Source of the DNA: Schmidtea nova
Taxonomy: Eukaryota
Length of the DNA: 64,000 bases
NCBI GenBank assembly: GCA_044892505.1
Contig: CM097884.1
Coordinates: forward strand, 5,146,001-5,210,000
Reading direction: 5' to 3'
Shown here in pieces: positions 1 through 37,189 of the stretch. The translations under genes and the position numbers were made by a program. The number at the start of each line of letters is the position of its first letter. The first letter of the stretch is position 1. The notes beneath the pieces are model-generated. The model ran no database searches and was not told the origin of the DNA. It saw only the letters and a list, made by a program, of their open reading frames with translations.

Positions 1-1152
1 GAAATTAATTTCAACAATTTTCCGCAAAATCAAATTAATATTTTTACATAATATTTCATAAAACTTTAAATAATTTATTTTTAATCAAAACTTTTCTTTT
101 GAATTAAAGTTTATTCTAATTTGATTTAATTTGTTACATTTTCGATCAAAATTGTTTTCTTTTATATATTTTCAAATTTTTAAGATAAAATCGCAACCAT
201 GTTTTCTGAAAACATGCTAAATTTCCACAACTGAGGTTTTATGTCATGAATGCGATCTCCATGTGCATATTCAATGTGTTTTTTGTCTATTCTAGCTTTT
301 CAGACGTGTTTCTTTTAACCACTTTGGTTTTACTTGATGTTTTGGTTAAAGGACTTTAAATTCGAATCTTGCGCGCTCTCTACTTGTTAATGCGATTTTG
401 TCTACTTTAATTCTTAGGCGTGTTTTCATTTAACTACTTTGGTTTTAATTGATGTTTTGGTTAAATTAGAATCTTGCGCACTCTCTACTGGCTCTATTAT
501 CGTTTTATTTAAACAATATTTAGTTTTTGCCCAACAAACAAATGGATAAGTATTCGTAATCAGTGAGCGTCGAAAATTCGAAACTATGATTGACTGAATA
601 TCTCCGATAGAAGGTTTAATGCCCATTTATCCCTTCTTCAACAATTTATCCATAAACATTCAATAAGATTTTAATCGGTAATTATCCATCTACTAATATC
701 CATCAGTCTTGTTATGCATTCAATGGTTGAGAAAACAGTTCATTAATACAGAAAATTTTATTGAAAATACACGAAAATTTATCGAAAATGAAGACGAATC
801 ACAACGAACAAAAATGACAAACAAAATCACAATATCACAAGAAGGTTACGTCTATGGTTTCTATCGATTCCTTGCGCAATTGTTCCAACAAGTGCGCTTT
901 TTGGCGGCGTTTTCGCTGAGCCCTCACACCTTTGCTGAGCTTCCAGCGCTTGGCCTTTTCTGGTTGAGGAGATGCTAATATTTCCTCCTCGACCCTCACT
1001 GGGAACAATTCCTGTGTGGGCATAGATATTTTTGGCAGGACAGCAGAAATTATACCACTTTCTGACTGCAGCTTTGCTATCATAGTTTCCTGCTCTTGAA
1101 TGGTCATCCGGCAGGCACGCAATCTCATAACATATTCCGTTGTTTGCTGCAG

Positions 1153-4145
1153 CAATATTGAATAACTGATGGTTCTTATTAATTATCCTAAACTGTGGGA
1201 AAGTATATATCTTATTATTTAAATAACAATCAAGATACAACTGGTGTGTTAGTCCAGTATCTTTCATGCTAATCCCCTTAGTCCTCATACACGCGTCGTC
1301 TCCCATCAAACTATAACATTTCGATCTAAGAAACACCCACTCTTCATACAAAAGCCCTTTATTCTAGTCTTTGAATTTACCAATGACAGAATCAAGGCTT
1401 TTACTGTATAAAGGATAATGTGGGTCATAATTAGAAGTGTCCAGCAAGCAATCATTTATCATAGCCGGTGAAAGACTGTTAAGACTACAGTTTTTTTACC
1501 TCAAGAAAAAAGGAATCAGTATCTCCAGCAACGATGTTAATTTCACAGTTGAAGTCATCACGATAGTTTTGTAACTCTTCATACAAAAACTGGTATATTT
1601 GAAGTTTGGATAAATCCAGTACAGTTTGACCGATGTAGCTGGGTCTATCCAAACATACTGATTCCTTTCACAGCAAAACAGAAATAACGTCATTGTCAAT
1701 TTTAATGGTATTTTTAAATGTAGGTTTAGATGCGTATGTTTAAAAGTTTTTGTGTGGAATTACACAAACGCAAATTTAATCGTTTTACAGATTTTCAACA
1801 GTCTCGCCGTAAAGACTGTTGCTAAATAATTTATAAAAGTTTTTATCTAATTTATTTGTCGGCGCTGCTCGTAACACCGTATTTGTATTGATATAATTTT
1901 CAAAATTTTATCTTGTGTGAATTTTATTGCCCTATGCACATATGTTATATTTACACCTATTTTAATAAATAGTTGCAGAAGCCTGCAACGAAAAACGTAG
2001 TTCCTCTTTGGATAATGCGTAATCTCAACCTTTGAACCGGGTGCACACATCTTTTCAGCGGCAACGGGAAGATCATCCAGATTGTCGTGAATTGACGTCA
2101 GTATCTCTAAATCCATTTCTATGGTATAACCACAATGAAGTGCATCTAAATTTACCGTTGTGCACTCAACAATTATTTCATCAAATAAGTGGCCACCTGT
2201 GACCCATTCAAAATTTGCACAAGGCAAGGATTGACTTAAAGTCCAACCATATAAGTTATTTATGTCAATATATAGGAATGCCGTATCCGGGCTAGTTTTG
2301 ACATAATGTTTATTGAAAAACGTTAGCCCGCGACGAATACCGCCCTTGAAAAAGTTATAAATCTCCATATCGGTGAGGAGCTCAATTGGAGAGTTTAAAG
2401 TTAATAATGCCGAATTCCACGACATGCCGGGAATTCCTAAAAGATTTAATGGCTCAAGCCTATTATGTTTAATGGACTTTACCCGAAATTGCTGAAAATA
2501 ATCAGCCAAAAGAAAGACATCGAGCTTTAAATAAACCATCATGTAATTAGAAAGTGAATTACATAATGTTTCAAATTCATTGTGCTGCTGCGTATTCTAC
2601 TGGTGTAACATGTTTCCAGATAGGAGGTAATGATAAAGTCGATCTTAAAACTTCCAATGAAGTAGCTGCATCATAAGGAGAGATACTCTTGGCTGTTCTT
2701 ATTGTGTCGCGAAATTCTGATTGAGTCAATGGTAAAGAAGTCAAAGTTTTGACCGCATTACTTAAAGACTCGCTCACAAATTGATACGAGTGGATAAACT
2801 TAGCTGTTAATGTGTCAATATAAGCAAAAAGACTTAAAACCTTTTCGCTAGTTTACGGAATACAACTTATATTCCAAGTATTATATTTGGAAAGACCGTA
2901 TTTTAAATCAGGGTGTAGATCATACCCCTTTTAATTATGAAAGATGACAAGAAGGGTATGTCTAATCTGTCTGGATTTATTGCAAGAAGAAAATGCAGCT
3001 CCAAGAAATATACCGGAAAAATGGTCGTGATCGCAAACAGGGTTATTTAATAATTTTTTGCAGAAGTAACAAGTTGTGCTGTTGTCAAAAGATAATTGTT
3101 GGGTGGCTGTAATTACCATTTTCTTTTGATAATTTTTAAAAAAATATGGCGTCACGATATATTTGCTTATGGATTCAATTTCATTAAGAAATCGATCGAC
3201 ACAATCTAAACCGAAGAAAGATTTATATATTTAAACTCCAATAAAATTATTAATATGAAGGAGACCGGTGAAATAGGTAAATGTTTCTAAAAGTACCTTG
3301 TGTCTTTAGGTAAGGCAATGTGTATAAGGTGGTACCCAACTGATTTTTTTACAAAGATCCCTATGTCTATTAAAAGCCTCATCATTCCTAAAACCGTTTA
3401 AACATCGAGAACACTACTGACTACAAATCTTAACTGGTGTAATTGAGCTTTTTCGACAATTTAGAAATCTATTTAGGTCTGTAATGGCAAGATAATGATA
3501 AAAAGTTTTATTTTCTAAAAGTAGTAAATTTATAGTTATTCCTCCAACTATCTTACTACGATAAATAATATCTAAAGGGGTGTTTCAATACTACATCATC
3601 ATTACCAACAGAAATATCTATCAATGCCTTTTCATCATATGTAAAAATATTGATACTATAGCCAGTGTTTTGTCACTCAAATTTACTTATATTAGCCAGT
3701 TTCATGGGCATGTCATTTGGGTCATAATTTAATTGTGTAATATCATAAGAAGTAGGACGATTTCTATATTGTCTGTCTATGGTGTCATATTTTATAATAG
3801 ATAAAAAACTATAAAGAAAACAAAAGTCGTCATTATTAACTACATTTACAAGAGAACTTTAATTTTTTATAGATCTTGAGGTTTCTATAAAATTACTGCC
3901 ACTCAACCTACTTATTTCGCAAAAATTTAGTCAGAACAAAGCTTATATATTCAATTTTGAAGATAGTCCAATTGCTCCCTTTCTCATTTACTTTAACAAT
4001 TTTTTCATTTAAATTAGCAATACTTTCATCAATGAAGGTATCACTCCAAACTCTGGCAGAATTCGAGATGACGGAAGATTGTAATTCATCATCCTTCTCA
4101 AATTCTACCTTCAGACAGAATTGAATTTTAACTGATTTTAATTTA

Positions 4146-4150
<5 letters not shown>
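1153..4150 (-). pseudogene. Polinton/Maverick (adintovirus-type) protein-primed family B DNA polymerase, disrupted by stops and frameshifts
   Basis: Manual translation across frames gives, in order: GSNFIET..SLVNVVNNDDFCFLYSFL (~3900-3800); INLLLLENKTFYHYLAITDL; endonuclease VII-like insert CYFCKKLLNNPVCDHDHFSGIFLGAAF; YLKLDVFLLADYF; GGIRRGLT; LYIDINNLYGW; catalytic GDTDS (~1513-1527); DTSNYDPHYPLYSKSLDSVIGKFKD*; EEWVFLRSKCYS; KGIS. The N-terminus abuts a (TA)n tract and similarity ends at ~1153. Confidence 0.88.

Positions 4151-4231
<81 letters not shown>
4150..4231. repeat. (TA)n microsatellite
   Basis: Direct reading, about 40 units. Confidence 0.95.
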
Positions 4232-4233
<2 letters not shown>

Positions 4234-4275
4234 ATTTAGATAATAAAATATACGTTACAGATACCGTTTTTAAAA

Positions 4276-4945
4276 TTAAATTATAACATGTGTGTCGTTC
4301 AAGCCAGAATTAACTTCGACTACCCTATGTTCAATTTGAAAATTATTATTATTATTATTATTATTATTGTTTGAACCATTAAAGACACATGATTTGAAAA
4401 ACATTTTATTCCTATCAAACAATTTGTCCTTCAAAACAGCATCAATTCTCTTTACAAAGTATTCAAACCAAATAGATTCCATTGCCGAATAAGCAACCAA
4501 TCGGCCTCCAAATGTTTCATTTTTAGCAAATAAGTGAGCAACTCGAGTTTGTTATCAATAAATTGTTGTTTGTAATGAACATTACGTAAAAGAATAGAAA
4601 AATTCTCTCTGTGATTTGTTTGGCTATTGATTTGAAACTCAGAAAACCAGCGCGCTTCAGGGATTTGGATATCGTTATTGAGCTTGAATATTAAGCACTG
4701 CTCTGAATACAAACTCCCATGCGATAAGAGGAGTTCGACAATATCCTGCTCAGCGATCGGAAAACTAGCTAAAGAAAAGGTTTGAGGTCCAAATTGCTGT
4801 GGAATATAAAATTTAGATGATATAATTTGATATGTTGCATAAATGTCATAATATTTTATTGGAAATAGAACAAATCGCTTCTCGTTTGATATCAATAATG
4901 GCTCATTTCTGTCTAATATTTCAGCTCGTCGCTCTTTCGCAAAAT
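4276..4945 (-). pseudogene. Highly diverged ribonucleotide reductase small subunit (R2/RRM2-like), intronless, one frameshift
   Basis: NEPLLISNEKRFVLFPIKYYDIY resembles R2 EPLL.ENPRRFVIFPIEYHDIW. IQIPEARWFSEFQ resembles VQITEARCFYGFQ. After a frameshift near 4530-4560, KNETFGGRLVAYSAMESIWF resembles EATYGERVVAFAAVEGIFF. The C-terminal half is not alignable. Confidence 0.75.
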
Positions 4946-4949
4946 ATTA

Positions 4950-7900
4950 AAAAAACTCCAAACCGATACCGAAACACAAAAACATCTCCCAACTTCCAAA
5001 AATTGCATCGATAAAAAACCATAACTCCTTCATTCATAATAATCCTAAATCAATTCAATCTTCAATAACAATTAAACCAAAAATATACAACAAGCCATGC
5101 GCACACAAGCGCCAACGACACCACAATTCATGCGCAGACATGGGCCGAAACATTCCCCCCTTGATCCCTTCTAGCGGATCAACCGACCAATTTAGCTCTA
5201 GAGGGCAAACCTTGCTTATAGGTCTCATTATCTCATTTCCTCTGCTAAGAATCCTTAACACCCGCACCTTTCCATCTTCTTCAGGACAGACTTCCGCTAC
5301 TCGTCCAAGCTTCCATGATTTTTTACATAATCCGTTTTCCAATAACCAGATCAAGTCCCCGGTTTTTAAATTTTTCCCTTCTTTTGCCAATTTCTTCCTA
5401 TTCCTCCATCCAAGAACAATCTCTTATCTCCATCGCCCCCAAAACTTCTCGCTCAAATCCTGAATCATCTTCCACCGCTTTTTTATGCCAGTTCCCATAA
5501 GTTCTATTTTTTTCTCGCTAAATCTTTTATAACCGGGCTTGACGAAGTGATTCGGCGTCAATATTTCTTCTTCTTCCGGATCCTCACTCATAGTTGTCAG
5601 TGGTCTATTGTTAACCATATCTTCCGCCTCAGCAATGACGGTTTGCAGCTCTTCGTCAGTCAACTCAGCAACTCCAGTAATAGCTAATAAAGCCTTTTTC
5701 GCTTCCTTAACTAATATCTCGAACATCGCCCCAAAGTGTGATGCACTGGGAGGGTTAAAAATCCATTTTATCCTATCATTTTTGAGCCCCTTTTGGATTG
5801 AGTACGTATCAATCTCCACTTTCTCAATTTCACTCGGGGCTCCTACAAAATTCGTCCCGTTATCAGACAAGACTAACATGGGTGTTCCACGACGTGCGAA
5901 ACTTTTGAATGCACTGATGAAACTCTCTGTGTCCAGATGGATCTCCAAGTGGACCGCTCTTGTCACGAGGCAGGTAAATAAACAAAAATAACGCTTCGCC
6001 CTTCGATTTCCACGTCCCCTTATGACCGTTGTTATTGGTCCTGCGTAATCCACCGCAACCTTTTTAAACGCCTCCAGAGGCTCATTCACTCTAAATCCAG
6101 GGAGTGGCTCCATAATCTGTTCCAGTGTCTTGGCTCTCCCTTTTTGACAATTCACACATTCTTTCCTTATCCTTTTAATCAATTGTCGTTCCCCCACAAT
6201 CCAATACCTTTCGTTGACTTTTGACATCAAATACTCCGTTCCACCGTAGTGCTTCAATGACTGGTGTATCTCACCCGACTTTTCCCTGAGAGTATTAGTG
6301 GATACTTCGTCGCCGGATCCATCCAAGTTGCATTTGCCAAACGACTCCCACCCTACATCATTCCGTCATCCCAAATGTTGGGGCATAACGATTTCAATGT
6401 GTTTTTCGTTCCCACAAACTTACCCCTCTGAATGTCTTCCCATTCTTCAGAAAACTCAATTTTTTGATCTTCACGAATCAATGTGACCTCCGCATCCTCA
6501 ATTTCTTCACTTGTAAGTGCCCCATTTTTTCGTTTTGTTTTTTCTTGTTTAATATCTTCAATGAATCTGTTCAGACTAGCTCTTGTACGGACCAGTCTTC
6601 TCCATTTGGAGTAGGTTTTCGGGTCTAAGCAACTCGTTTTCCAAGCTGACTCTATATCATCTCTTCTCGTAATAAGGAAAAATCTCTGTATCCAATTCTG
6701 ATTCTTGGTCTCCTGCGCTCGTTTATTCTCCCAATTTGGTCAACTATCCTCCTCCCCTTGCAGAAACTTTGGCCCTTCAAACCATACCTTGGAATCTCTT
6801 AGTTCTTCTGCTCTCATTCCTCTTGATAGCAAATCTGCGACGTTTTCTTTCGTCGGTACATACCTCTACTGCGGTCTTCTCGTTGACCTTTGAATTTCCT
6901 CGATTCGGTTCGCAACAAATACCTTGCAATAACGCCCTAACTGCGTTATCCAGTACAAGACATCTTCACTATCCGTCCAGAAGGTGATATCTTACACATT
7001 TGTCTTCAAACATTGTGATACCTTTAGCCCTAATTTCACTCCCAATTCCGCCGCCAATAGTTCCAATCGCGGAATGCTCTCTACCTTAATTGGTGCTACT
7101 CTGGATTTGGCTGCGATTAGGTTAGTTCTCACGTCTCCCACTTTACTCTCTCTGACGTAAGTTTCGGCCCCGTATGCGCATTTTGAAGCGTCAACAAAAA
7201 TGTGGATCTTCCATTCATTTTTTGTATCTCCAATTAAATATCTTTCACATCTGATTTCGTTTAAAATCGCAAATTCTTTCAGCCAACTTTCGACCTTCCT
7301 CAACAGATTTGGTGGCAACAATTCATGCTAATCTGTACCAGCTAGCCAAATCTCTTGCATCAACAACTTACCTCTAATCAGAAAACTTCCAGCAAATCCC
7401 AAAGGATCAAAGATTCTGGCTAAACGACTAAGAAATCCTCGTTTCGAGAGACATTGTTGATTTGGGGGTTTGACGTCGTAACCAAACTTATCCTCTGCCG
7501 CAACCCAAACCAGTCCCAGGGTTTTTACTGCCACCTTGTTTTCCTCATTCAAACTTAAGAGCTTTGGTATCCTCTCCATAGGAAGTTTCTAATACCTTTT
7601 TGTCATTAGTGAGCCATTTATTCGTAACCATTTCTGCCTTTTCCCAAATACTAATAATTTCATCCTTGATCCTGATCACTTCCTCGACCGATTGAAAAGA
7701 ATCCATCGTATCATCCATGTACGTGGATTCTATTATTGTTTCTGCCGCTCTCGGAAACCATTCTCGAAATCTCTCAGCATTTCGTTTGGTGACTAACTGC
7801 ACCAGAAACGGAGATATGTTTAGTCCGAAGACTAGCCGTTCAAATTCAAAACCCTCAGTTTTTCCATCTTCATTCCAAATAAATCTTAAATATTTTCTAT

Positions 7901-9845
7901 CCTCTTGATTCACCTTTATCTGGAGGTACATTTTTTGTATATCACAAGCAATCGCCACTGGATGTTTTCTGAATCGTAATAATATCTCAAATAAATCATT
8001 TTGTAGCTTTGGCCCTTGTTCAATAGCATCATTTAAATTAATACCATTATTTTTCGCTGCTGCATCAAAGATTATTCTAATCTTGGTTGTCTCCTTGTCC
8101 ATTTTTATCACAGGAAAATGTGGCAGCCACCACTTTGTCTCACAAAATTCCTTCTCTGCCAACAACCTGATATACCCTTTTCGCACGTAGTCATTGAGCA
8201 CCTCTTTGTAGCTTTCTTTTAACCTACCGTCTTTCGCCAACCGATTGCCTAGACTCCTCAAACGCTTTTCCGCCATTTTCATATTATCTTGAAGTTGATA
8301 CTTGTTCACCCTCCATAACAAGCTAACCGTGAACCTTCCATCCTCGCACGACATACCTTCGATCGCCTTTTGCATTAATATTTCTTCACTCTGGCTGAAC
8401 TGATTCTTTTCAACGTGTCTCCTCAATTTCCCAAAATTGCCGCATCTGGTCTTCCAATCTCTCTGTTTTTCAAAAATAGCTCTGGACAAAATGGGAGTGT
8501 CGTGGAGCTTGATCCCTATTGACCTTGCCCAGACATGTCCACCCGAGAGGCGTCAGTCTTGCAACTGGCTCATCCCTCATCCTTCATTAGAACATCTATC
8601 TGCGGTCTTTCCCCAAGAATCGTGAATCGAATGTCCTTTAGGTGCTCCCAGTTATACGCCACCTTTGCCAATTGCATGCATTTAAGTCCCTGGTGACGCT
8701 TTTAACGAATAGGGTCTTAAAGTTGACTTTCACCTTGTTGTTATTGCTTGCCAATATCTCATCTATCGGCTTTGTTCCTAACATTTTCGATTCCCCCCCG
8801 ATCACGCCCACTGGCATATTTTTCCATAGTCCCCCAGCCTCTAGTTTCTGTGCAGCCCAATCGCTAATGTAACTAACATTACTTGCATCGTCCAGCAATG
8901 CATTTACTCTTATCCTCTTTCCCTTCGATTCTAACACAATAGGTATTGTCCTGAGACTTATGTAACCGATATCATTTAACCTTCAAGTTGCAACTAACCG
9001 AGTGGTATGCGTTTGCGGTTTTTGGTTGCTGTCCCCTGCCAATTCCTTCATTCTTCAAATATGTAGCAAACTATGATGATTTCCTCCACATTCTTTTTCC
9101 TTACAAAATCCTGGTCTGGTGCATTCTCTCACTCCATGTCCTTTTCTTAAGCAACTATAACATAATCTCCACTCTTGAACTCCCTTTCTCCTGTCATTTA
9201 CTGATAATAGTTTGAATTTTGGGCATTGATCCAGATAATGCGCACCCTGACATTTAAAACACATCAACCTGCTTTGATCTTGTTGCATAATTATTCCTAC
9301 CTTACCTTTACTTGAGTTTTGTTTTACCTCATTGCCAGAGTTCGTAAAGTGTGAGTACCTTCTATTGTCAATCTTTTCGGAAGTCTTGAAGTTTTTCTTC
9401 CCGTACTGCCAATTAGAATCATTTTCACGACCAAAACCATATAATATTTCATTTGTCGATCGCGTAAGGTCAGCTTCATTTTGCAACCACTTCTTAAATT
9501 GTGTTATTGATTCCTCACCTTCCTCTTTCGTTTGCTCTCTTTTCCATCGAATAAGTAGAGAAGCTGGTAATTTCTTTAACAATTGTTGCAAGAGACAGCC
9601 TCTCTGTAAGTCCTCTTCTCTTCCGATTGCTTTAAACCGTATCTCCATGGATTCCAACAATCCAACGAAAATATCCAAGTCTTTTATTTCTCCTTCGCGA
9701 ACCGGCCGAAATTTATCTACTGTCTCTAACATAGTCAGGTAACTTCGTTCTTCACCTCCGTAACGCCGTTTCAATTTCTCTTTCTCCATTTAGTAACCTT
9801 CGGCGGTATAACCTAGTGTATCTATCATTCGTAGAGGTTCAACTA
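4950..9845 (-). mobile_element. BEL/Pao LTR retrotransposon, 5'-truncated and decayed
   Basis: Domain order: gag (DUF1759-like ..LKRRYGG, three Cys/His knuckles, 9055-9845), protease (LLDDAS, 8638-8990), RT (WWLPHFPV, RIIFDA, YMDD, 7545-8489), RNase H (FVDASKCAYGA, RLELLAA), integrase (HHCC, SDNGTNF, 5424-6326), C-terminal DUF5641-like region. PPT AAGGGGGGAA is followed by TGTTTCGG (3' LTR start at 5152). The distal LTR end is approximate. Confidence 0.92.
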
Positions 9846-10130
9846 ACAAGTCAAAAAATCAAAAAACATTTAAAAATAATGAAAATTGAAAAAGTTTTAA
9901 AAAATGCTTATTTTGCGATGAGTCATAATTTTCTTTTGATGAGTCATCGATTAATCATCGATTGGTAAAAAAAATTTAAAAATTAGAAATTTTTCGAAAA
10001 AACAATATATGAGTTATCGATGAGTCAAAAATTTTTCTACCCCCGGAGATGGGGTGTCTTTGTTTAAAATATTTCCTCCCGCGCAATGAATCATCATGTC
10101 TTTGTTCCCGGCTCCACACATATAACTACT
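9845..10130. mobile_element. Polinton/Maverick terminus and subterminal region
   Basis: Reverse complement of the end reads AGTAGTTATATGTGTGGAGCCGGGAACAAAGACATGATGATTCA, homologous to the TIR at 27873 (AGTAGGTAGAAGTGTGGAGCCGGAAACAAAGACATTATGACTCA). It shares the TGAGTCA repeats and the CCCC..GGGG motif. It interrupts a gypsy gag at 10130/10131. Confidence 0.8.
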
Positions 10131-11046
10131 CTCATACACCTTATTTTTTGGCAATATCTTCTCACGTGTTCAGGGTACCCCACGCATAACATTCAATCAC
10201 CTTTCTCTGCAAATGTGGACACTGGCTTTTAATATGTCCTCATCTTCCACGTGTAAAACATGTAACTGCCTTCCTTGTTATGCAATCTCTACTCAAATGT
10301 CCTACCTTGTGAAATGTCCAACATTTGTTCTTATTTCTATTCGGTCTTTCTTCTCGATATTCTCGAGGCTCGTTATTATCTTATTACAATATTTCTTGTT
10401 TGATTTGTAACCGCGTCTCTGTAACATCTTGTTATATTCGGTTCTGTCTTTCTTTCTCTCACTTCATAGATCTCTTCTGCAACTATACGAGATTCGTGTA
10501 ACTTCTTGATTTTTTTCTTCCCTTTCATTGTTCCTTTTGTGTCACTTAAACACAGTTCTCGCTTCGAAGTCTTCTCGTATGCACAGTGTACCAGCATTTA
10601 TTCTGTTAGGCTTTCCTTATTTAACTCATGCCTCAATATTTTATCAACTTTCTCGTTTATGGTAGAAAATATTTTTCGGACTCTTCGCTCGTCTGTCTAT
10701 AGAACAGAGCCGATAGTAAATCCTCTGCCAACGTTGTTTTTTTGACGAATGCCTTCCGCAATCTTTCTTTATAGCATTTAATATTTGTATAAACTCCTGT
10801 ATCTATTTCTCTAATACTTTTGTCGATCAGTAATTTGACCATCACTTCTTGTTTTGAAGCAGGCATTTTAAATACTTTAAAATATTTATCACATTTTTTA
10901 ATGAATTTCTCAATATCATCTTCCCTATAAAAATAGCTCGGAAATAGCTTCTTTATGAAGTATGCCATTGACGTGGTCGACATATTAGATGTTGATAGAA
11001 CATCTTCTAAATTATTTTCTAAATTAGGTTGAGAAGTTGAAGTCAT
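10131..11046 (-). mobile_element. Ty3/gypsy gag remnant with CCHC zinc knuckles
   Basis: ORF 10657-11046 (DDIEKFIKKCDKYF..) and downstream knuckles CFTRGR*GHIKSQCP and CYAWG../EHVRRYC; cut at 10130 by the Polinton end. Confidence 0.7.
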
Positions 11047-11651
11047 AATTCCAAGTTTTTATTTTACGAAATATTATTTAATTTTCAAACAAATTTTCAG
11101 CCTTGAACAAAATATTTTCAAAACAATTTATAAATTTTAAAATGTATAAAATTATTTATAAAATTATAATTTATTAAAATTTAATTATTTATTTCATCTC
11201 TTTAAATTACAAACTTTAAAAATAAAAATTACAAATTATAAAAATTTAAATACACATCAATTATAACAGTTATTTTAAAACTTATTAAAAAAACTTTTTT
11301 AAAACTTTTTAAAACTTATTATTAAAAGTGGGAACCACTTTTTCGAAAATGTTGCCTAAAATTTGACTTTTGTTGACAATGATTGTGATGCTTGGTTTTG
11401 TGTTTATTATGTGTTCATTATCTGTAAGTAACATAATTTTATATTAAACCAAATATTTTCGTAGTCTACAGAGTAATAGCGAAATTTGTGATTAAAATGC
11501 TATAATAACATTTATATATATTAAAAATCTTAATATAATATTTTGTTTTAATTATCTTATTTAATTATATTGCTTTATTAAGTTTTGTTTTTTCCCTATT
11601 TTTATCTTGAAAATTTAACTTAAATTCATGTATCAAGTCTATTAAGTTTGA

Positions 11652-14430: not shown

Positions 14431-14985
14431 GCAATATTATTTATCTTCCATCATCTATTTTTTCTATTTAATATACTAGCTATGTTTTTCCAATTAAATT
14501 TTCATGCGGTCCTTCATAAGTAAATTCGAGCTACACTTTTGCAGTTATTCTACCTACTGTATTGGTGCTGGTACTATGCTTTACTTTGTATTATTTGTGT
14601 TTTCATGAAAGCAGACAGATGTGTACACTCCAGAACAAAGACATATGACGCCATCGATGAGTCATAGTCTATCAAAATCAAGTGACCCCCTTCCGCTGGG
14701 TTACTTTTTTGTACAGCCCAATAATCTTTTTACACACATGAAGAGTCATCAAATATTATTTTGTATTTTAAGGTCATTTTAAGGACAAACCACGAGGTAA
14801 TCTTAAGGTCAAGGTTATGAAAAAGAAAAAAGAAGTGCATGAAAAAAATAATATCAAATATTAATCAAGTTAGATATTTAAATTAACTGGTGTTTTAATA
14901 ATTGATTATTTGTCACTTTATAAAATTTTACTTGAAATAAATCTATGAAAGAATTGCAGTCTCTTAAAACCGAGTTTTATTTAAC

Positions 14986-14996
14986 TGGCGACCACG
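14986..14996 (+). promoter_or_regulatory. Primer binding site TGGCGACCACG (probably tRNA-Arg)
   Basis: Overlaps the last base of the 5' LTR. The identical PBS occurs on the minus strand at 42934-42944. The tRNA identity is inferred from complementarity to a CGTGGTCGCCA 3' end. Confidence 0.7.
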
Positions 14997-17726: not shown

Positions 17727-18626
17727 TGTTAGGGATGGACCTTATGTCCTAATTATAATTCAACTTTAGGAATAAAATACACTAAATAGTTAGAATAAAA
17801 AATAGAAATATAAAATTACTAAAATTAGGGAAAATATTTAAATAATAAAAATATAATATAAATAGAATTTTATAGTAACTAAAAATAAAATAAATAAAAA
17901 TTTAGCAATTTAAAATTATTAATATTGTTTTAATATATTATTTTAATATAAATAAGGTCAGCAAGACCAGTGGCGGATATTATAAAAATATTTGATTGAC
18001 ATTTAAGTGATTCTGACATTTAACAAACAAGGTATATTACTTGTGTTTGTATTTTGTGAAGGGAATAAATCGAAGGGAATAAATCGATAGAAATCGCCTA
18101 TAAAAAGAAAAGAAAATTCAACAAGGAGAGACGAAAAAACAGAGTGGAGTTCAAGAAATTATCCAGCGATTTTATAAAGCCAACCAAGTGTTAGTACTTG
18201 TGTCGGATCTTGGAATTCAAGAAGCTTTGTAAAGCTATTAAGAAGATATTTAAAAGCTCCTAGCAGCAGTAAGCATCTATTGCGTTTGTTATTTTAAATA
18301 GTTTAAAATTAAAAGTAAGCCAACAGTTTGACTTGTTGTGTTTACTGGGGTTGTGCCTAATTTACTCTTACTTACCCTTCTGTTTAATCCAAACGGTGTG
18401 AGCTTATAGTACCACCGGTTTCTTTTTCTCTTAGCGGAATTTAATACCATTTTGTTGTAACGCTTTTCAAATTTGTACACATCACAAAAATTAATTAAAG
18501 ATATTAATTGAACACAACCTTTTTGATAATTATTGATATTCATATACTTATTTGTTTACTTAATTATTTATTTAAATAATTATTATTTTTGGAGTCAGAC
18601 CTGTGTTAAGGTCGAGATATCCCCAA

Positions 18627-18712
<86 letters not shown>

Positions 18713-18724
18713 ACTATCTTAACA
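17727..18724. mobile_element. Solo LTR (998 bp) inserted in the gypsy RNase H
   Basis: TGTTAG...CTTAACA termini with 4-bp TSD CCAG (17723-17726, 18725-18728). Removing it restores the codons C-V-T-R-K-E. It contains a (TA)n tract and a GGAGTCAGA motif near its end. Confidence 0.8.
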
Positions 18725-20027: not shown

Positions 20028-20058
<31 letters not shown>

Positions 20059-26789: not shown

Positions 26790-28019
26790 ATTTTGCAGTT
26801 GATAAGGAGTCGAATTCACGGCAAATGGATGTTCACGAGGAGTCGATGGCGAATACAATTTTCGAACGTTTCGCGAAGGCGCACTATGCCCGAAACGCTT
26901 CACCGGATTTACAATTTTGGGAGCCCTAGTCCAACAAATATTTGAGGCCCCATTTTGAAAAATAAAAAATATTTCTAAGTTTTTAAATTCAAAAATATAT
27001 TACAACTTTAATATAATTCAAGATTTTATTTCAATTTGTAAAAAATATTGTTTACAATCTACATAATCTTTTTTCTGTATTTTTCATCAACAAAATCGTT
27101 AACCAATGAATCAAAATCAATCGACTTCATTTTGTCAGCATTACTTGATAATAATGCAAAATTAGTTAACGTTTTTTGTGACAAAGTTGATCGCAAATCA
27201 TTTTTCGTTAATTTTAATTTTGAAAATGACCTCTCTCCAGAGCAGTTGGATATCATGAAACATGAAAATTCTCAGAACTATCTCGGTATTAGGAAATGCA
27301 GCCTCCATTTGTTTTTCTTTAATAAATTTGTTCAAATCCAAATGGGACAATTGAGGAGCTTGAGTATTGAAATGATCTTTCAAATAAAGATGAAGATGTT
27401 CGATTTCTGCGTATAAATTTTCGTCAATGTCTTCTGCGTAGTCTTCCCCCAGACGGTCAACACAAATCTTCAGTTTATCTTTATTGATTTTTGTGTCTTT
27501 TAAAAATCCAAATTTGTCATTCAATTCCATGTAGCATTGGGCTCTTTCTTTCAAATTTGTAGTGAGATCATTGATGATTTTTAAGAAAACATTTGTCTTA
27601 AACTCTTCACGTGGACTCAACTGGGTTTCTTCTGAGCGATTTTCACCTGAAAGCTCTTTTCTTTTACGTCGTCTCTTTTCTAAATAACCAGTGTCTGATA
27701 ACAGCAATTTAGCATCTTGTTCTATTAAATCGAAATTTTCAGTTATTCCAATAAGATAATCACCAAGAGATGAATAAAGTTCAGAACATGTATCCAGAGT
27801 AATAGTTACACTTTGCAATGATTTGGAAACTGCATTCATTCGTTGAAAAATTTGATACCACATTACTATTTGAGTAGGTAGAAGTGTGGAGCCGGAAACA
27901 AAGACATTATGACTCATCGATGACTCATAACAAAGAACCCCCCCCCCGGGGGGTTGGTAGGAATTTTTTTTATGACTCATCGCGATGACTCATCGATGAC
28001 GTCATCGATGACTCATTTC

Positions 28020-29220
28020 AAATTTGAATTTCCAAAGGTCAAACAAGGTCAAACCTTCAAACAAGGGTATCATTCGAAAGGTCTTGGAAAGGTCTATCCA
28101 ATGGTCATACCCTTGAAGGTTTATGGAGGGTCCTTGACCTTCGAAGGGTCAAAAACCTTCAACCTTTTTTAAACCTTATAATATATATATCAAACAAAAG
28201 GTAATTGAGAGGTAAGTAAGATGGTCATACCCTTGAAGGTCTATGGTGGGTGCTCAACCTTCAAAGGGTGCAAAACCTTCAACCTTTTTCAAACCTTGTG
28301 TGTAATACATCAAACAAAAGGTAATTGAGATGTGCACACAATGGTCATACCCTCGATGGTCTATGGTGGGTGCTCAACCTTCAAGGGGTCAAAAACCTTC
28401 AAACCTTATAAGTTATATATCAAACAAAAGGTAATTGTGAGATGTGTGTGTGTTACAATTTACAAAGGTAATTGAGAGGTAGGTATGCTGGTCATACCCT
28501 TGAAGGTGTATGGAGGGTCCTTGACCTTCGAAGGGTCAAAAACCTTCAACCTTTTTCAAACCTTATAATATATATATCAAACAAAAGGTAATTGAGAGGT
28601 AAGTAAGATGGTCATACCCTTGAAGGTCTATGGTGTGTGCTCAACCTTCAAGGGGTTAAAAACCTTCAAACCTTATAAGTTATATATCAAACAAAAGGTA
28701 ATTGAAATGTGCACACAATGGTCATACCTTCAAAGGTCATACCCTTGAAGGGTCCAAGGTTCAAATTTTTAAAACTATATAATATGTATATCAAACAAAA
28801 GGTAATTGAAGGGTGCACACAATGGTCATACCCTTAAGGGTCCAAGGTTCAAATTTTTAAAACTATATAATATGTATATCAAACAAAAGGTAATTGTGAG
28901 ATGTGTGTGCGTGTGTGTTACAATTTGCCAGAAGAGTGTGAGTGTGTGTGTTACAAATCCTTTTTTTCAAACCTTATAATATGTATATCAAACAAAAGGT
29001 AATTGAAATGTGCACACAATGGTCATACCTTCAAAGGTCATACCCTTGAAGGGTCCAAGGTTCAAATTTTTAAAACTATATAATATGTATATCAAACAAA
29101 AGGTAATTGTCAGATGAGTATGTGTGTGTTACAATTTGTCTGGCGAGTATGTTTGTGTGTGTGTGTTACAAATCCTTATTCAAACCTTATAATATACATA
29201 TCATTCGAAAGGTAATTATG
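28020..29220. repeat. Subterminal tandem array of ~100-130 bp units
   Basis: About 9-10 recurrences of TATCAAACAAAAGGTAATTG alternating with GGTCATACCCTTGAAGG and AAAACCTTCAA. Confidence 0.85.
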
Positions 29221-29388
29221 GTGTGTGTGCGTTATAATTTTTTCTATTTCCTACCTGAATTACAACAAAGACATTGCAATTCATGTGCAACGAAACAAAG
29301 ACATTGCAATCCATGTGCAACGAAACAAAGACTAATAAAACTTGTAATAATAATTTTTGCACACGTATCTTAGTGTTTAATAAGGATC

Positions 29389-29570
29389 ACAGTACACATT
29401 GAACGCGCGTGGAACGCGCGTTCTTCTCCTCTTGTTGTTTAAGACAAATAACAGTACGCATTGAACGCGCGTGGAACGCGCGTTCTTCTCCTCTTGTTGT
29501 TTAAGACAAATAACAGTACGCATTGAACGCGCGTGGAACGCACGTTCTTCTTCTCTTGTTGTTTAAGACA

Positions 29571-29572
<2 letters not shown>
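29389..29572. repeat. Three 62-bp tandem units, each with a CpG-rich hairpin
   Basis: Units start at 29389, 29451 and 29513; each contains GAACGCGCGT-GGA-ACGCGCGTTC (third copy has one mismatch). Confidence 0.9.
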
Positions 29573-29603
<31 letters not shown>

Positions 29604-29652
29604 TTATAAAAAATATAATAATAATAGAAACTTATAAAAAATATAATAATAA

Positions 29653-29698
<46 letters not shown>

Positions 29699-29936
29699 TT
29701 ATAAAAAATATAATAANNNNNNNNNNNNNNNNNNNNNNNNNNNNNNNNNNNNNNNNNNNNNNNNNNNNNNNNNNNNNNNNNNNNNNNNNNNNNNNNNNNN
29801 NNNNNNNNNNNNNNNNNNNNNNNNNNNNNNNNNNNNNNNNNNNNNNNNNNNNNNNNNNNNNNNNNNNNNNNNNNNNNNNNNNNNNNNNNNNNNNNNNNNN
29901 NNNNNNNNNNNNAATAATAATAGAAAATTATAAAAA

Positions 29937-29988
<52 letters not shown>

Positions 29989-30294
29989 TTATAAAAAATA
30001 TAATAANNNNNNNNNNNNNNNNNNNNNNNNNNNNNNNNNNNNNNNNNNNNNNNNNNNNNNNNNNNNNNNNNNNNNNNNNNNNNNNNNNNNNNNNNNNNNN
30101 NNNNNNNNNNNNNNNNNNNNNNNNNNNNNNNNNNNNNNNNNNNNNNNNNNNNNNNNAAACTTTTAAAAATATATAAATAGCATGCGAAAGATATTTGAGA
30201 TGTATGTATGTGTATATTTTCAAACCTTCAAGATGTCAAAATAAAATAATTAAACTACCACAACGTAATATATATTTATTTTCCTACCCATTTT

Positions 30295-30477
30295 GACATT
30301 GCAAAACAGATGCAAGTTAACAAAGACATTGCAAAACAGATGCAAGTTAACAAAGACATTGCAAAACAGATGCAAGTTAACAAAGACATTGCAAAACAGA
30401 TGCAAGTTAACAAAGACATTGCAAAACAGATGCAAGTTAACAAAGACATTGCAGTTGCAAGCCAAGTTAACAAAGAC
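30295..30477. repeat. 30-bp tandem array (5 perfect copies + 1 variant)
   Basis: Unit GACATTGCAAAACAGATGCAAGTTAACAAA. Confidence 0.95.
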
Positions 30478-30573
30478 AAGATGTCCAAAAAGACTAATTA
30501 TTAATCACAAAGTGCATTCTCTTAGCCAATGATAAAAATAAATTAAATGAAAATACATATATTTTGTATGACA

Positions 30574-31089
30574 TTATATGTATATCACATGATATTCATC
30601 AATATTAATACCACAAGACTCACACTTATCAATATTTTTTAAACATTTTGAACAAATAATGACATGTCCACAAGGTAAATATAAAATGCCAACTCTATTG
30701 ATATTACATATTGAACATGTGAGAAATCTTTGTTTGGTTTCTTCCAATTTCTTGGTTACATTTACCTCTAAAATATCCACATTCAGCATGAAAGTTCGAA
30801 TAATAGTACGATATTTTCCAAGTCGAAATTCCATACATGACCAGAAAATGGTATTCAAATTGAATTCAGTAGAATCGATATCATTAAGAATCATAATAAA
30901 ACTGGATAATTTCATCATGGATTTATCATATCCGAATGATTCTGTTAAACCAATTATTAATTTATTATTGAAGGATTTGAATAATTTTGAAAGAATGTCG
31001 ATATCGCATTTCTCAATCGATGTTAAAAGGTCATCAAGTATTAAAAAGGATTGGATCCAATTGTCCAAAGTAATGAAATTATCTGTAAC
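30574..31089 (-). CDS. RING-HC (IAP-type C-terminal RING) E3 ligase-like gene, exon 2
   Basis: Open frame from acceptor AAACTAG|GTT to stop. The C-terminus CSICNINRVGILYLPCGHVIICSKCLKNIDKCESCGINIDEYHVIYI is a C3HC4 RING with an IAP-like hydrophobic tail. No BIR domain. Confidence 0.8.
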   Translation of the reverse strand, partial: VTDNFITLDNWIQSFLILDDLLTSIEKCDIDILSKLFKSFNNKLIIGLTESFGYDKSMMKLSSFIMILNDIDSTEFNLNTIFWSCMEFRLGKYRTIIRTFMLNVDILEVNVTKKLEETKQRFLTCSICNINRVGILYLPCGHVIICSKCLKNIDKCESCGINIDEYHVIYI

Positions 31090-31133
31090 CTAGTTTAAAA
31101 TAATTAATTTAAATATATATTTTTAAAACTAAC

Positions 31134-31160
31134 TTTATTTGTTTCTTTATTCATTTTCAT
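31134..31160 (-). CDS. RING gene, putative exon 1 (MKMNKETNK)
   Basis: ATG..AAA|GTTAGT donor, 44-bp AT-rich intron (31090-31133), phase 0, giving a ~180-aa protein. Confidence 0.55.
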
Positions 31161-31329
31161 CAATCAATACTATTTACAAGTTGTATTTATATTGCAAAAA
31201 TCAACCAATTTAATAACCAAACATTTTATTGACCAACCAATGATTGAAAGTTTTGCTAAACTGTTACATTGAAATGATGATAAGTGACATTGAAAATTAG
31301 GTAACAGTATATTTATTATTAGAAATATG

Positions 31330-34300
31330 TTCAAGTAATGAGCTTTTGCACATCAAAACCATCACAGAATAGGTTCTGCTACTAGTGTTCTGCTCGCAAT
31401 GTTCTGCTACTAAATGTTCTCTCACTATGACAAATACATGAAAAGTTATTATACTATTGAGATAATCACACATATTATTCTTAAATTATAGTACAAATAT
31501 ATCAAAAATATATGAAATATACATTACATACTTGAAATATTATCACAAAGTATCATTACATACATGAAATAACATTATACTATTGTGCAAATTACATACA
31601 AAATATCATCATACTGCAATTACATCGAAAATCACCAAAATTATACACAAAATATGAAAAGTACATAGAAATTCGTCACATATAAAAACATTACATATAT
31701 GAACTATTATCAAAAATACATACAAAATACATATAAATTTATCACACACGTACAAAATATCACCATACTATAGTGAATAAATATACATACAAAATGTCTG
31801 AAATACAAACATACATAAAATATCATCTTACTATAGTTTGATAACATAGAAATACATGAAATATCCTCAAAATACAGAAACTTTCACAGATATATAGATT
31901 CATCATACAAAATATCATATATAAGAAATATCATTACAGATTATCACATGCATGAAATATTATTATAGTGCAAATTACATAGAAAATAGCAAAGATACAT
32001 GAAATATCATCACAAAATACACATAAAATTATAGGAAATTTTCACACTAGAAATAATAATAATAATAATCATAAAAAGAATATTATCACGCCAGTACAAA
32101 ATTATACAGAATATTATCACATTGAACAAAAGCTTATCATATATATGAAATATTATTATACTTTTATGTAAACTACAAAGAAAAATACAAACATATACAC
32201 AAAATATTATCACATTATAGTGTCTAAACATTGCAAATACTCACAAAATATGTGAAATATGACCATAAAATATCAAAGAATCACAAAGAAAATATATAAA
32301 AGATTATCATATTTTTGTTTGATAACATAAAAATACATTGAAATACATAAAAAATTATTAAAATGCATACAAGTATCATTACATACATGAAATATCATTA
32401 CACAAAATGTTATAACGCATGAAATATTACCATACAAAATATCAAAAGTACATAGAAATAAATCCTATACACAAAGGATATCATTACATATATGAAATAT
32501 CATCATACTTTAATACAAATACAGACAAAATATTATCATGCTATATTCCAAATACACTTAATATTAAAATAGAAATATCATGCATACATACATACATATG
32601 AAAAGTGGTCATGTTATAGTCAGTCAAATGCATGAATTATTATCATACTAGTGTAAAATACATATATAATATCAAAAAATGTATCATACATACAAAGGAT
32701 ATCATCACAAAGTATCAATACATACATTAAATATCATCACACTATAGTACAATTAAATAGATAATCATCAAAATATACAGAAATTAATCAATTTCACAAC
32801 AATACTCATTAAAGAAATATCTACATACTTGTGCAATTACATAATAAATATACAGAAATACCAAAATTATATGAAATATCATCACAAATATCAACACATA
32901 TGAAATATTATCATACATACACAAAGAATATAATAACATATTTAGAAAATTATCACATACAAAATATCAAAAGTCCATTACACATATAATTTAACAGTAA
33001 TAAATGTTTAATTAATGAGCTTTTGCACATAAAAACCATCACAGAATAGGTTCTGCTACTAGGGTTCTGTTCGCAATGTTCAGCTAGCAATGTTCTGCTA
33101 CTGAATAAATTTGATGAAAATGTAACAATGTATTATGAATGGAAATAAATCTCAATCATTACAGTAAATTCTACTTTAAAATGAGGTTGAATGCATGAAA
33201 TGTCATTATTCTATAGTGATAATACATGAAATACTCTTTAGATACATGACTTTAGATGCATCAAATATTATCTTACTATAGTTTGATAACATAGAAAAAA
33301 TAAATAGAAATCATCAAAATTATACAAAATATTAAAAAAAAAATATTAAATTAAATATCATCATAAAGTACATAGAAAATCATCAAAAATACACAGAAAT
33401 TCATCAAATTCACAACAATAATCATTAAAGAAATATCTACGTACTAGTGTCATTACATAAAAAATATCTGAAAATTTAAGATATATCATCACAAATATCA
33501 ACACACATATGAAATATTATCATATACAAAGGATATAATCACATACAAAGGTTCATTACACATACAAAATATAATATATCAACATACCTTAATGTAACAG
33601 TAATAATTGTTCAAGTAATGAGCTGTTGCACATAAAAACCATCACAAAAGATGTTCTGATACTAGGGTTCTGCTACTAAATGTTCTGCTAGTCATGTTCT
33701 GCTACTGTAAAAAAATTAATGAAAGTTATATGAATGGAAATAAAACTATCATCATACTATAGTGCAAATACATTAAAATATTCACAAAATGATATTAGAT
33801 GCATCAAATATTATCTAACTATAGTTTGATAACATATTAAAAATAGATCATTTGAAATGTCATCACAAAATACATAGATATTCATGTACAAAATATCACA
33901 AAATATCACAAATACAATAGAAACACATATCAAATATATATGAAATGTCATCACAAAGTATCATTAAATATATGAAATATCATAATTCTACAGCGTAATT
34001 ACAAGAAAATCTCCACAAAATATCACAAATACAATAAAATTCATCAAAAATACATAGCAATTCATCAAACAACAAATATTCACATAATAATTCTCATTAA
34101 AAGTGTATCAGTAAATGTAATATGCTTTCACAATTTTTCTGTTACATTGATCGAAGCTCATATGCTAATGATTGTTATTTTAGTATATGTGTGAATAATA
34201 ATAAGCTTTTGCACATAAAAACCATCACAAAAGATGTTCTGTTACTAAAGGTTCTATCCGAAATGTTTTGCTAGTGGATAAATTTAATGAAAATTATACG

Positions 34301-34500
34301 AGTGACAATAAATTGTTAGAGTAAATTCTACATTAAAATGAAGAAAACCGATAGAAAATATTAATTGGTGAAAATATTAGAACAAATGATGCTGAATGAA
34401 TTGTAATAAATGTTCGAGTAATAAGCTTTGGCAGATAAAAACCATCACAGAATAGGTTCTGATTCTAAAGGTTCTGTTCGAAATGTTCTGCTAGCATGAA
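31330..34500. repeat. Low-complexity ATATCATCACAAAATAC-rich region punctuated by five copies of a conserved ~85-95 bp motif
   Basis: Motif TAATRAGCTTTTGCACATAAAAACCATCACA(G/A)AA..GTTCTG(CTACTAG) at ~31333, 33011, 33611, 34196 and 34414. Confidence 0.8.
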
Positions 34501-34834
34501 ATTAATATCATAAAATTATAGTCTGTGACAAAATAATATGTTGAAATAGTTATTGGAAATATATAGTCTGTGACAAAATAATGATTGGAAATATATAGTT
34601 TGTGACAAAATAATAATTATTGGAAATACGCGCAAATAAATAAATTAAAATAATATCAAACTGTACATCATAGTTTTAATTTCTTGTAAAAAACAATGCG
34701 GGTTATCAAAATTCATGTTCTAAATAAAATTTTACAATTTAAAATACCACAACGTAAAATATTTATAAAGTACCACAACGTAATAAAAGTTGGTATATAT
34801 CTATTACAATTTTATAAGTAATTCATTTTAAACC

Positions 34835-35059
34835 ATGAATTCTGAACACTATAATGATAATCAAGTTAAAGAACCTATTTCAGTAAATGGAGTTTCGATG
34901 CCTGAAAGTCCTAAACTTTCAAGTAAACGTACAAGTAAATTTATATTTATTTTTATAAAGTTATTTTTATAATATTTATTAGAAAAATATAAAGAAATTA
35001 ACAGTCCAATTGAAGAATTACAGAACCTAATAAATTCTTACTTGGACTCTTTGTTATGA
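34835..35059 (+). pseudogene. Spliced Polinton gene truncated by the right TIR
   Basis: Exon 34835-34934 (MNSEHYNDNQVKEPISVNGVSMPESPKLSSKRT), 48-bp GT-AG intron, then an in-frame exon (KYKEINSPIEELQNLINSYLDS) that runs into the TIR at 35048 and stops. Confidence 0.55.
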
Positions 35060-37189
35060 GTCATCGATGAGTCATAATGTCTTTGTTTCCGGCTCCACAC
35101 TTCTACCTACTTATTTGTAAGGCAAATTCAAAAGGTTCCACTTTCGATAGTAAATTGCCAGCCTCAGCTCTTGCTTTCGTTTCAAAACTTTCACTCTCAT
35201 TGATTGTGAGCAATGCTTCCATCAATTTGTCGTAGTTCTGCTGAATGGATTTGACCGAGTCAGCATGAGCGCTCCATCGAGTATTCGATAGTGATTTCAA
35301 TGAACTACTTGCCAATTGTCCCAAAATACTCCATCGCTTTGTAGAAACAGAGAAAAAATTGTAGAGTTCATGAACAATACCGAGAAACTTAATTCCTTCG
35401 ATGCAACAGTCCACAGCAGCCTCTCCCACTAAGTTAAGAGAATGACCTGAACATGGCAAGAATTTCGCCAGCTCATTGAGTTTCAAAATTTTAGTTTTCA
35501 TGCCTATATATTTTCCAGTCATATTTCTCGCGTTATTATAAGACTGGCTTCTGCAGTTGCTGATTTCCAAGTTCAATCTTTCGTCTAAAAAGCCAACGGT
35601 TACATTTGCTAAATTTTCCCTTATGTGATTATCGATGTGGATGTAGTTGACAAATCTTTCGATTGGCTCATTAGAAGTTTGATCAATGTACCTCAAGATC
35701 ACACATAGTTGATCTTTGTGGCTCACATCAGGTGTCGAGTCTACTGATAATCCATAATACTTTGATTTTAGAACATCATCGCTGATTGATTGCAAAACTT
35801 TTCTCGCTCAACTCCTCACATGTAGTCTTTGAGAGGTAATTTGTTTTTCCAGAACCGTTGTCACCATAATTTTTTATGGGTTCGGCCAAAAAAGGATCAA
35901 ACTGTGAAATCAACTCGAGCAGACCAATAAAATTCCAGTTGCTCTCAGCCCCAAATTTTTCATTTGAACCTCTAAAAGCTAAGTTTCTTTCAATCAATGT
36001 TCAAATTACAGCCGTGACTCTTCTTAGAACCTCTCTCCAGTAGTTTTTATCTTTGCGAATTTCGTTTAGAAGTTGATCCTTTAAAACGTTGTTATTTTTT
36101 TCTGTGAAAGTATGCTAAAGAAGCTTTTCTGTGGTCCGATGAGTTCTCATGGCCTTGAATTGATGCCACAGAATTTTTCCAATCTTTAAATCCCGTTGAA
36201 GCTAAGGCAAATTTTGAGGCTTCAAAAAGTTTGCAGACAAAACAGAATACACAACCCAACGCTGGTGAATATATGAGCCATTCTCTATTAAACGTTTCAC
36301 CGTTCACTTTTTTCCCCACAAACAAGCTTTTTGAGCAATATCGATCGCGATCTTGATACGTCATTATAGAGGATTTAAAGTCATTATCTGCATTTTGACA
36401 TGTTGACGGACCGCTCTCTATCCAAAATTGTATTTCCTCAGCTGAAAGGTTATCCCAAAGTCCTGGATCACTTTTTCTATTCAATGGCAAATCTTTTTGA
36501 ATATCCGTCTCTTCATCGAGTTCTGATTGTTCGTTTAAAGTTTGAGTCACCTTGATTGAGTCCTCTAAAAGACCCGATAAACTAGCTTCTTCACTTATGC
36601 CAAAGTTTGTAAAATTAGCTGAAGTTGATGAATTAGCATGAGATTCGGTTTCAACAGACAACTATCGAGATTTCGATGTTTCTTAATGTTTTTTCTATTT
36701 CTGCTTTTTTCTTTCTTTTTGCAGCTCCACTTTCATAAGTTCTTAAGGAGCTTCTTCCCATTTCTGGTTGAAATTTTTTTTTCTCGGAGAAATTAACTTA
36801 ATATATTTTAATTTTAAGATGAAAATTTTATCAATGAAAATATTAAAATCACTATGAAATAATTATATTGCAAATCGATTGATATTAAAAATATTTTTCA
36901 TACTACTCAAAATTATTTTGGGGCCCCTTATTTTGCGGGGCCCCTAGGCCATGGCCTAGTCGGCCTGCCTGTAAATCCGGCCCTGTCTGTCGTGTATTCT
37001 ATAGAAAAGTAAAATAATCTTTTTTAGTTGTTTTAATAATAAATAGAAGTTGATATATTTATTTCTAATTACTTTTTTTAAATAGAAAAAGAATTAGTTT
37101 GTTCATTTCACTTTACTATCTACAAGATAGAAGATTTTTAAAACTTCATTTGATCCCAATAGTGTTCCTTGGGTAAAGAAATTGGCTTA

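Follow-up and report, generated by a model that had tools for sequence, protein, structure and literature searches.

We analysed a window of 64,000 nucleotides of Schmidtea nova (G000:C3:5146001-5210000) and focused on its positions 1-10130, which an original prediction had described as the right part of one autonomous Polinton with a pPolB gene and a ribonucleotide-reductase R2-like gene, invaded by a BEL element. A nested arrangement was found. A Polinton copy at 1155-10130 was interrupted by a BEL/Pao retroelement, and the long terminal repeat (LTR) of the retroelement held a spliced piece of a host R2 gene. The LTRs of this BEL family carried a variety of captured host pieces in a common frame, and ubiquitin stood before several diverged Gag types. 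We propose that 1155-10130 is a dead Polinton copy interrupted in this way, and that the BEL family likely translates one long frame. This frame would run from host-derived LTR sequence through the primer site into ubiquitin, which host deubiquitinases would cut to release Gag-Pol. The probability that we assign to this reading is roughly 0.72. The nested features were as follows.

1155..4367, minus strand: Polinton pPolB pseudogene in which the N-terminal part and the last C-terminal motif are missing; 13 stops and 6 frame changes
4341..4367, no strand: (AAT)n poly-Asn tract of pPolB, the BEL insertion site; relative F runs on in pPolB beyond the tract
4368..5152, minus strand: BEL/Pao 3' LTR, 785 bp, TG...CA; identical ends in dispersed copies of 88-95% identity
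4420..4938, minus strand: captured spliced piece of a divergent host R2 paralog (end of exon 1, exon 2, and 44-48 bases of exon 3); the frame is broken once here
5153..5165, minus strand: polypurine tract, a purine run directly before the TG of the LTR
5153..9851, minus strand: decayed BEL/Pao internal region (3' part of gag, protease, reverse transcriptase, RNase H region, integrase), with Pfam DUF1759, RVT_1, Integrase_H2C2 and DUF5641
9852..10130, minus strand: Polinton terminal inverted repeat (TIR), 279 bases; it and the pPolB belong to one subfamily, and a deletion joins it to the BEL gag

The BEL/Pao element and its R2-like cargo

The predicted invasion of the Polinton by a BEL element was supported, with the BEL LTR sitting inside pPolB at its (AAT)n tract. 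The domain order was DUF1759 Gag, reverse transcriptase (RT) and integrase with DUF5641. The internal region matched another element, K, with 91% identity over 4.9 kb, and the 5' 3.5 kb of K were missing in the window. The window copy has lost its 5' LTR, primer site, leader and ubiquitin-Gag junction by deletion, and 9 stops and several frameshifts were found in its internal region. The primer site and both LTRs were present in the relatives K, M, N and O. Element M carried the LTR type of the window at both ends, and the two were 98.2% identical. In addition, 5-bp repeats flanked four of six full solo LTR copies, two of these four in unique DNA. The best Gag-Pol relatives outside this genome showed 31-34% identity in Gag. 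The family mostly adjoins (AAT)n or (TA)n tracts (L104-L119; window 4341-4367). The gag up to the protease at 8864 was common to the window and three other loci (L059, L060, L080), whose pol differs. Gag and pol modules recombine within the BEL family.

The R2-like gene had been taken for a Polinton gene immediately upstream of pPolB. A frame at 4452-4946 in the same orientation as pPolB was present as described. It is not a Polinton gene, because it is located in the BEL LTR that was inserted into the (AAT)n tract within pPolB. The frame matched Pfam PF00268 with E 1e-5, under the curated cut-off, and human RRM2B with E 5e-13. The LTR piece corresponded to profile positions 1-111 of 281 at a sub-threshold score, and no full-length R2 domain was found. 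Among the 150 scored of 790 candidates, the best R2-like matches covered window 4368-5152 with the same TG..CA ends. R2 as Polinton cargo was rejected: it was carried by none of eight close pPolB relatives and by neither of two complete neighbours, and the R2 piece has BEL LTR ends.

The R2 piece was captured from spliced host mRNA. An intron-bearing divergent R2 paralog at host locus L082 was 92.6% identical to the LTR piece. It contains two introns bounded by GT..AG (about 51 and 48 bases) that the LTR copies lack, so the piece had passed through spliced mRNA. The host has a canonical R2 gene (L081) and this strongly diverged intron-bearing paralog (L082:3500-4515), and the paralog is the captured one. 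The canonical gene was rejected as donor, with no nucleotide match and 36% identity over 36 residues. An ankyrin fusion was likewise rejected; the ankyrin-looking words are diverged R2 sequence and also occur at L082. In the case of changes shared among copies, the R2 piece gave a ratio of 0.93 compared to 0.50 for private changes, which indicated no amino-acid constraint. The RT was constrained by the same comparison (0.12 vs 0.55, p 0.002).

Host pieces in one frame through the primer site

LTRs with other cargo were borne by elements 91-93% identical to the BEL internal region of the window. Their sense frames matched Pfam families of the RNA polymerase large subunit, HECT ligase, class II tRNA synthetase, APC2 and chaperonin. 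Further matches were to enolase, dual-specificity phosphatase, ABC transporter and helicase. The exact 18-base pattern of the primer site gave 1,592 matches in the genome and 0 in the control. At sites found by similarity, the frame that ran through the primer site was the longest open frame upstream in 22 of 24 cases. A second, evenly picked sample was drawn because these first 24 sites came from similarity to the window. It consisted of 40 sites, every fifth from numbers 1 and 4 among the first 100 listed. Site 53 took the place of site 54 so that no tandem duplicate was included, and a wider stretch was taken for it because of an R2-type match nearby.

In the evenly picked sample, the through-frame was the longest at 38 of 40 sites. 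It was open for at least 100 codons at 31 sites, compared to 0 and 1 for the other two frames. Within 600 bases upstream of the primer site, 131 stops were counted in the through-frame and 518 and 855 in the others. The through-frames were scanned with Pfam at 37 of the 40 sites, and three below 60 residues were dropped. Nine Pfam families were matched by 21 of the 37, adding FHA, ThiF, SAM decarboxylase, RING, Dcc1 and FKBP. The LTRs of the family thus represented at least 16 host protein families.

Two host genes were fused in frame within one LTR at three loci (L113, L134, L169). Fusions included chaperonin with HECT and chaperonin with a piece of dual-specificity phosphatase. Some LTR types were multiplied, namely the R2 type (the 790 candidates) and a lysyl-tRNA-synthetase-like type with about 22 near-full copies. 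For the latter, the donor candidate L141 (87%) did not provide a second case of splicing, as it has no ordinary intron in the captured part. Compared to the LTR, L141 showed an in-frame gap of 51 bases bounded by GT..AG inside the coding sequence, plus a 9-base insertion. This locus is a diverged lysyl-tRNA-synthetase-like paralog that adjoins a double-domain frame of 1,102 residues. Among sequencing runs, no RNA run was listed as containing the family. Family sequence occurred in four contig runs of unknown kind from one study; none of the 15 joints shown (of 25) was GT..AG-ended. Neither result has a bearing on expression.

Ubiquitin directly before Gag

Downstream of the primer site, the frame was open for at least 410 codons at 23 of the 40 sites. 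Ubiquitin was found in all 17 of these that were scanned, Hsp90 in 11 and Hsp70 in 4, and the Gag domain DUF1759 was reached in 7. Typically, the through-frame passed from the primer site into Hsp70 or Hsp90 pieces and then into ubiquitin directly before Gag. Several ubiquitin pieces could be present per leader. Of 27 copies close to the family of the window, 23 had LRGG immediately ahead of the Gag start. The last ubiquitin ended in GG in 28 of 33 cases, ahead of at least five different Gag starts. No stop lay between the primer site and Gag at 9 of the 40 sites, and a methionine was found near the start of most long LTR frames.

The Polinton remnant

The remaining features around the nested elements, with a Polinton derivative given for comparison, were as follows.

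1..536, no strand: arm of a dispersed repeat unrelated to Polinton; 82% inverted match to L001:39-562 and many other loci
537..1158, no strand: second unrelated repeat, in the expected place of the pPolB 3' end and the left Polinton arm; matches of its own family stop at about 1158, and pPolB relatives match only from 1154-1159
10131..11287, minus strand: gypsy 5' LTR and gag, truncated at 10130; 86% over 1158 bases to L061, which goes on in gag-pol
27873..35111, no strand: 7.2-kb non-autonomous Polinton derivative with identical 64-bp TIRs and TATTTG on both sides

Positions 1-10130 are not one Polinton, since 1-536 and 537-1158 are two repeats unrelated to it. The pPolB pseudogene itself was present as predicted, on the minus strand at about 1155-4367. 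Its stops and frame changes were counted over eight alignments against a neighbouring copy, and alignment to that copy also revealed the missing C-terminal motif. The nucleotide identity was 84-87% to the closest relatives and 76-81% to the neighbouring complete copies. The C-terminal half of one pPolB relative matched Pfam DNA_pol_B_2 (PF03175, E 1.3e-10) and Atlas clusters with DNA_pol_B_2 in 25-37% of their members; a PDB sequence search with a relative's pPolB gave 0 matches.

The terminus had been placed at 9845-10130 as a homolog of the TIR at 27873. The AG..CT end at 10130 and the homology (87% over 46 bases) were upheld, and the start was corrected to 9852 because the BEL gag match extends to 9851. 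Its link to this pPolB subfamily was supported by the two best-matching termini, which were both ends of one locus, G. They scored 304 and 269 against the window terminus, and the remaining termini scored at most 223 (17 other termini aligned). The pPolB of locus G was 87-89% identical to that of the window, and in its subfamily the same stretch of about 300 bases was common to both ends. Locus G (L073-L075) is a 6.9-kb derivative with both TIRs, most of pPolB and no other core gene, and its deletion abuts the inner edge of the TIR, as in the window.

The missing parts had been expected farther left. In two complete neighbours, the protease, capsid, integrase and ATPase genes lay upstream of a pPolB located close to one end of the element. 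When 12 Polinton core proteins were searched against the window, pPolB alone matched; integrase, ATPase and capsid gave no match. Since upstream of pPolB means rightwards in the window and only pPolB matches there, the core genes were deleted and do not lie farther left. A left TIR preceded by CTCATA was also expected, and none of the four left-facing termini in the 120-kb left flank was preceded by it. A genome-wide pattern search for such a TIR gave 8 matches, 0 of them on this contig. The gypsy gag is indeed interrupted at 10130, as the gag of its relatives extends beyond the cut point. Its gag-pol continuation was absent from the 120-kb left flank.

One Polinton copy with one deletion was the simplest reading of pPolB and terminus. 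The BEL element would have inserted at the poly-Asn tract of pPolB, and a single later deletion would have taken its 5' 3.5 kb together with the Polinton capsid, protease, integrase and ATPase genes. Alternatively, 9852-10130 might be a second copy or derivative of the same subfamily, brought beside the BEL element by a larger deletion. Both ends of the subfamily carry the same 300 bases or so, the surrounding region is a nest of Polintons, and pPolB and terminus are tied by no target-site duplication, although 6-bp duplications were present in other Polinton copies. However, subfamily and orientation agree with one copy and one deletion, and we regard a second copy as unlikely, if still worth some weight. 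This question bears on the Polinton part only. The window Polinton is dead and of a kind already known, and the remnant by itself is of little importance.

Other Polintons and neighbouring elements

The window copy had been proposed as a relative of the helper that mobilised the 7.2-kb derivative. This was not borne out, as the ends of the derivative scored just 124 and 101 against the window terminus. The derivative gave no match to locus G at the thresholds used. It had 68-81% matches to subterminal repeats of another Polinton (L068), and it fits a different Polinton subfamily better than that of the window. The Polinton load of the genome is very large: a genome-wide search with a pPolB piece gave 29,242 first-look candidates, and most of the 150 that were scored belonged to open frames about 1,400 residues long. 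With so many candidates and such long frames among those scored, the decayed window copy is a poor helper candidate. The near-equal scores of the long frames among these 150 suggest a recent Polinton burst.

The 120 kb left of the window (L069-L002) contained at least six Polinton copies, some nested within others. Two were complete, 18.3 and 15.6 kb long, each with 6-bp duplications. The Polinton family encodes an open reading frame like the TATA-binding protein (L003:1117-1608, plus strand; Pfam TBP, E 1.6e-13), head to head with the ATPase. A 10.6-kb Polinton derivative (L007-L008) is mostly one long palindrome, and its flanks are inverted, not direct. Within the window, two more gypsy-like elements bounded by direct repeats lie at 39866-43054 and 14868-21377. 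A hAT-like transposase gene (DUF4371) at 27198-27872 and 35112-36661 is split by the 7.2-kb derivative. A tRNA scan of the window found no tRNA.

Proposed mechanism and alternatives

We propose that the RT may switch to a co-packaged host mRNA while it copies the R/U5 end and the leader. Because the switch would fall in this part, the captured piece would come to stand in both LTRs, and hence in solo LTRs. Translation likely begins inside the LTR. Gag-Pol would then likely be released by host deubiquitinases, which would cleave at the end of the last ubiquitin. As ubiquitin would make everything upstream disposable, selection may act on the open frame into Gag rather than on the captured protein. 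Captures would survive when the frame is kept, since the likely cleavage frees Gag. The shared R2 changes, unconstrained alongside a constrained RT, are in line with such frame-only survival. In a broader form, to which we incline by a small degree, the LTR and leader of this BEL/Pao lineage would be a standing exon-shuffling device. With the ubiquitin cut site making the upstream polyprotein disposable, autonomous elements would keep swapping in spliced host pieces, fused in frame and translated from within the LTR. They would scatter hundreds of promoter-bearing chimeric fragments of host genes as solo LTRs.

Several points weigh against the proposed reading. Splicing was proven for one donor (L082) only, and the BEL copies are related, so that the 40 sites amount to fewer than 40 independent events. 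The Pfam scan of these sites took in the through-frame only. The deficit of shared stops in the R2 copies was marginal (1/67 vs 12/132, p 0.064). Retention of the di-glycine did not differ significantly between the last ubiquitin (28/33) and an upstream ubiquitin remnant (17/24; p 0.32). Constraint on the last ubiquitin was also not significant (0.25 vs 0.40, p 0.37). In the Polinton part, pPolB and terminus were read as one copy without a target-site duplication.

The two ubiquitin tests leave room for another explanation, in which the captures are real and the common frame, by avoiding early stops, helps to keep the RNA stable or its translation efficient. Ubiquitin would then be an uncleaved passenger. 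Ubiquitin mRNA is abundant, and the multiple ubiquitin pieces per leader would suit a passenger. However, the module next to Gag was ubiquitin in all of the long frames scanned and across diverged Gag types. The ubiquitin ended in GG even where the preceding residues differed, while other leader cargo varied. We consider an uncleaved passenger decidedly unlikely. Still less probable, in our view, is that captured pieces are retained because of what they do themselves. They would act either as proteins (dominant-negative or chaperone-like fragments) or as RNA camouflage, whereby small RNAs that silence the element would also damage host genes. Chaperone, ubiquitin-system and cell-cycle genes are common among the cargo, and the multiplication of the R2 and lysyl-tRNA-synthetase-like types would fit this explanation. 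However, the shared R2 changes showed no amino-acid constraint, the fragments and fusions were arbitrary, and camouflage alone does not predict one common frame. Finally, a single autonomous Polinton with an R2 gene, and with core genes, left TIR and target-site duplication farther left, is almost certainly wrong: pPolB and terminus are genuine and of one subfamily and the R2-like frame is co-oriented, but that frame derives from a host mRNA and lies within a BEL LTR, none of the eight pPolB relatives has R2, complete copies hold the core genes at the opposite side of pPolB, and the 120-kb left flank lacks both the CTCATA-preceded TIR and the gypsy continuation.

Significance

If the proposed reading is true, LTR-started translation across the primer site, with captured ubiquitin as a release signal for Gag, would be a new expression mode for the polyprotein of a retroelement, closely parallel to the capture of ubiquitin by pestiviruses. 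It would account for the tolerance of an autonomous element to constant gene capture. The family would also offer a large natural series for measuring mRNA co-packaging and template-switch joining. Chimeric genes could arise from it, as could small-RNA conflict with essential host genes. In addition, such LTRs are prone to mis-annotation as host paralogs or, as in the window, as viral cargo genes.

Comparison with known systems

Cassandra elements carry 5S RNA in their LTRs, and retroviral LTRs hold genes such as MMTV sag and HIV nef. In those cases, each family has one fixed component, whereas the LTRs described here contain an exchangeable, in-frame patchwork of host coding sequence.

The Polinton part was compared with Polinton/Maverick elements and, as a candidate, with the adintoviruses proposed by Starrett et al. 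(PMC8502044). Its family has pPolB, integrase, A32-like ATPase, adenain-like protease, capsid-like protein and AG..CT termini, with 6-bp duplications in other copies. The window copy, in contrast, retains only a broken pPolB and one terminus. The adenain-like protease (PF00770) was found in the two complete neighbours, and the corresponding place is deleted in the window. No Pfam match to an OTU domain was obtained at the pPolB N-terminus in two relatives. An endonuclease VII-like domain was detected with Pfam in the pPolB of relatives; the portion of 10.1101/2023.08.22.554363 used here describes such a domain for one nematode pPolB class. Other kinds of cargo are described in part of a review of giant elements (PMC6431247).

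In the case of BEL/Pao, the family shares with the elements of a survey (PMC3118150, in part) the DUF1759 Gag, RT, integrase with DUF5641, LTR, primer site, polypurine tract and 5-bp duplications. It differs in its reading frame, which begins on host-derived sequence within the LTR and reaches ubiquitin-Gag by way of the primer site. The word "ubiquitin" occurs 0 times in the main text of that survey. A ubiquitin domain was found in none of five Gag-Pol relatives outside this genome, in a weak search. No description of this design, with host capture in LTRs or ubiquitin-Gag, was found in the literature searched, Repbase, subscription journals and supplements being outside the search. A Repbase report on a planarian BEL family, cited in part of the survey, could bear on novelty.

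Two further systems were compared. For cytopathic pestiviruses, sections of PMC8310069 describe host ubiquitin captured in front of a viral protein; additional host sequence lies upstream of it, and host hydrolases cut at the ubiquitin. Those are sporadic events in an RNA virus with cleavage shown, whereas in the BEL family cleavage is a probable step read from the frame. In the case of animals, the relevant part of Tan et al. (PMC5131818) describes LTR-mediated retroposition of partial, spliced and sometimes chimeric mRNA pieces by template switching, including by the Pao element BATUMI and by BEL18_AG. According to that part, the retrocopy replaces part of the internal open reading frames and yields non-autonomous chimeras. 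In contrast, the elements described here retain gag-pol, and their captured pieces occupy the LTR and leader and share the gag-pol frame. Capture of mRNA by LTR elements is thus already known, in the form of such internal replacement.

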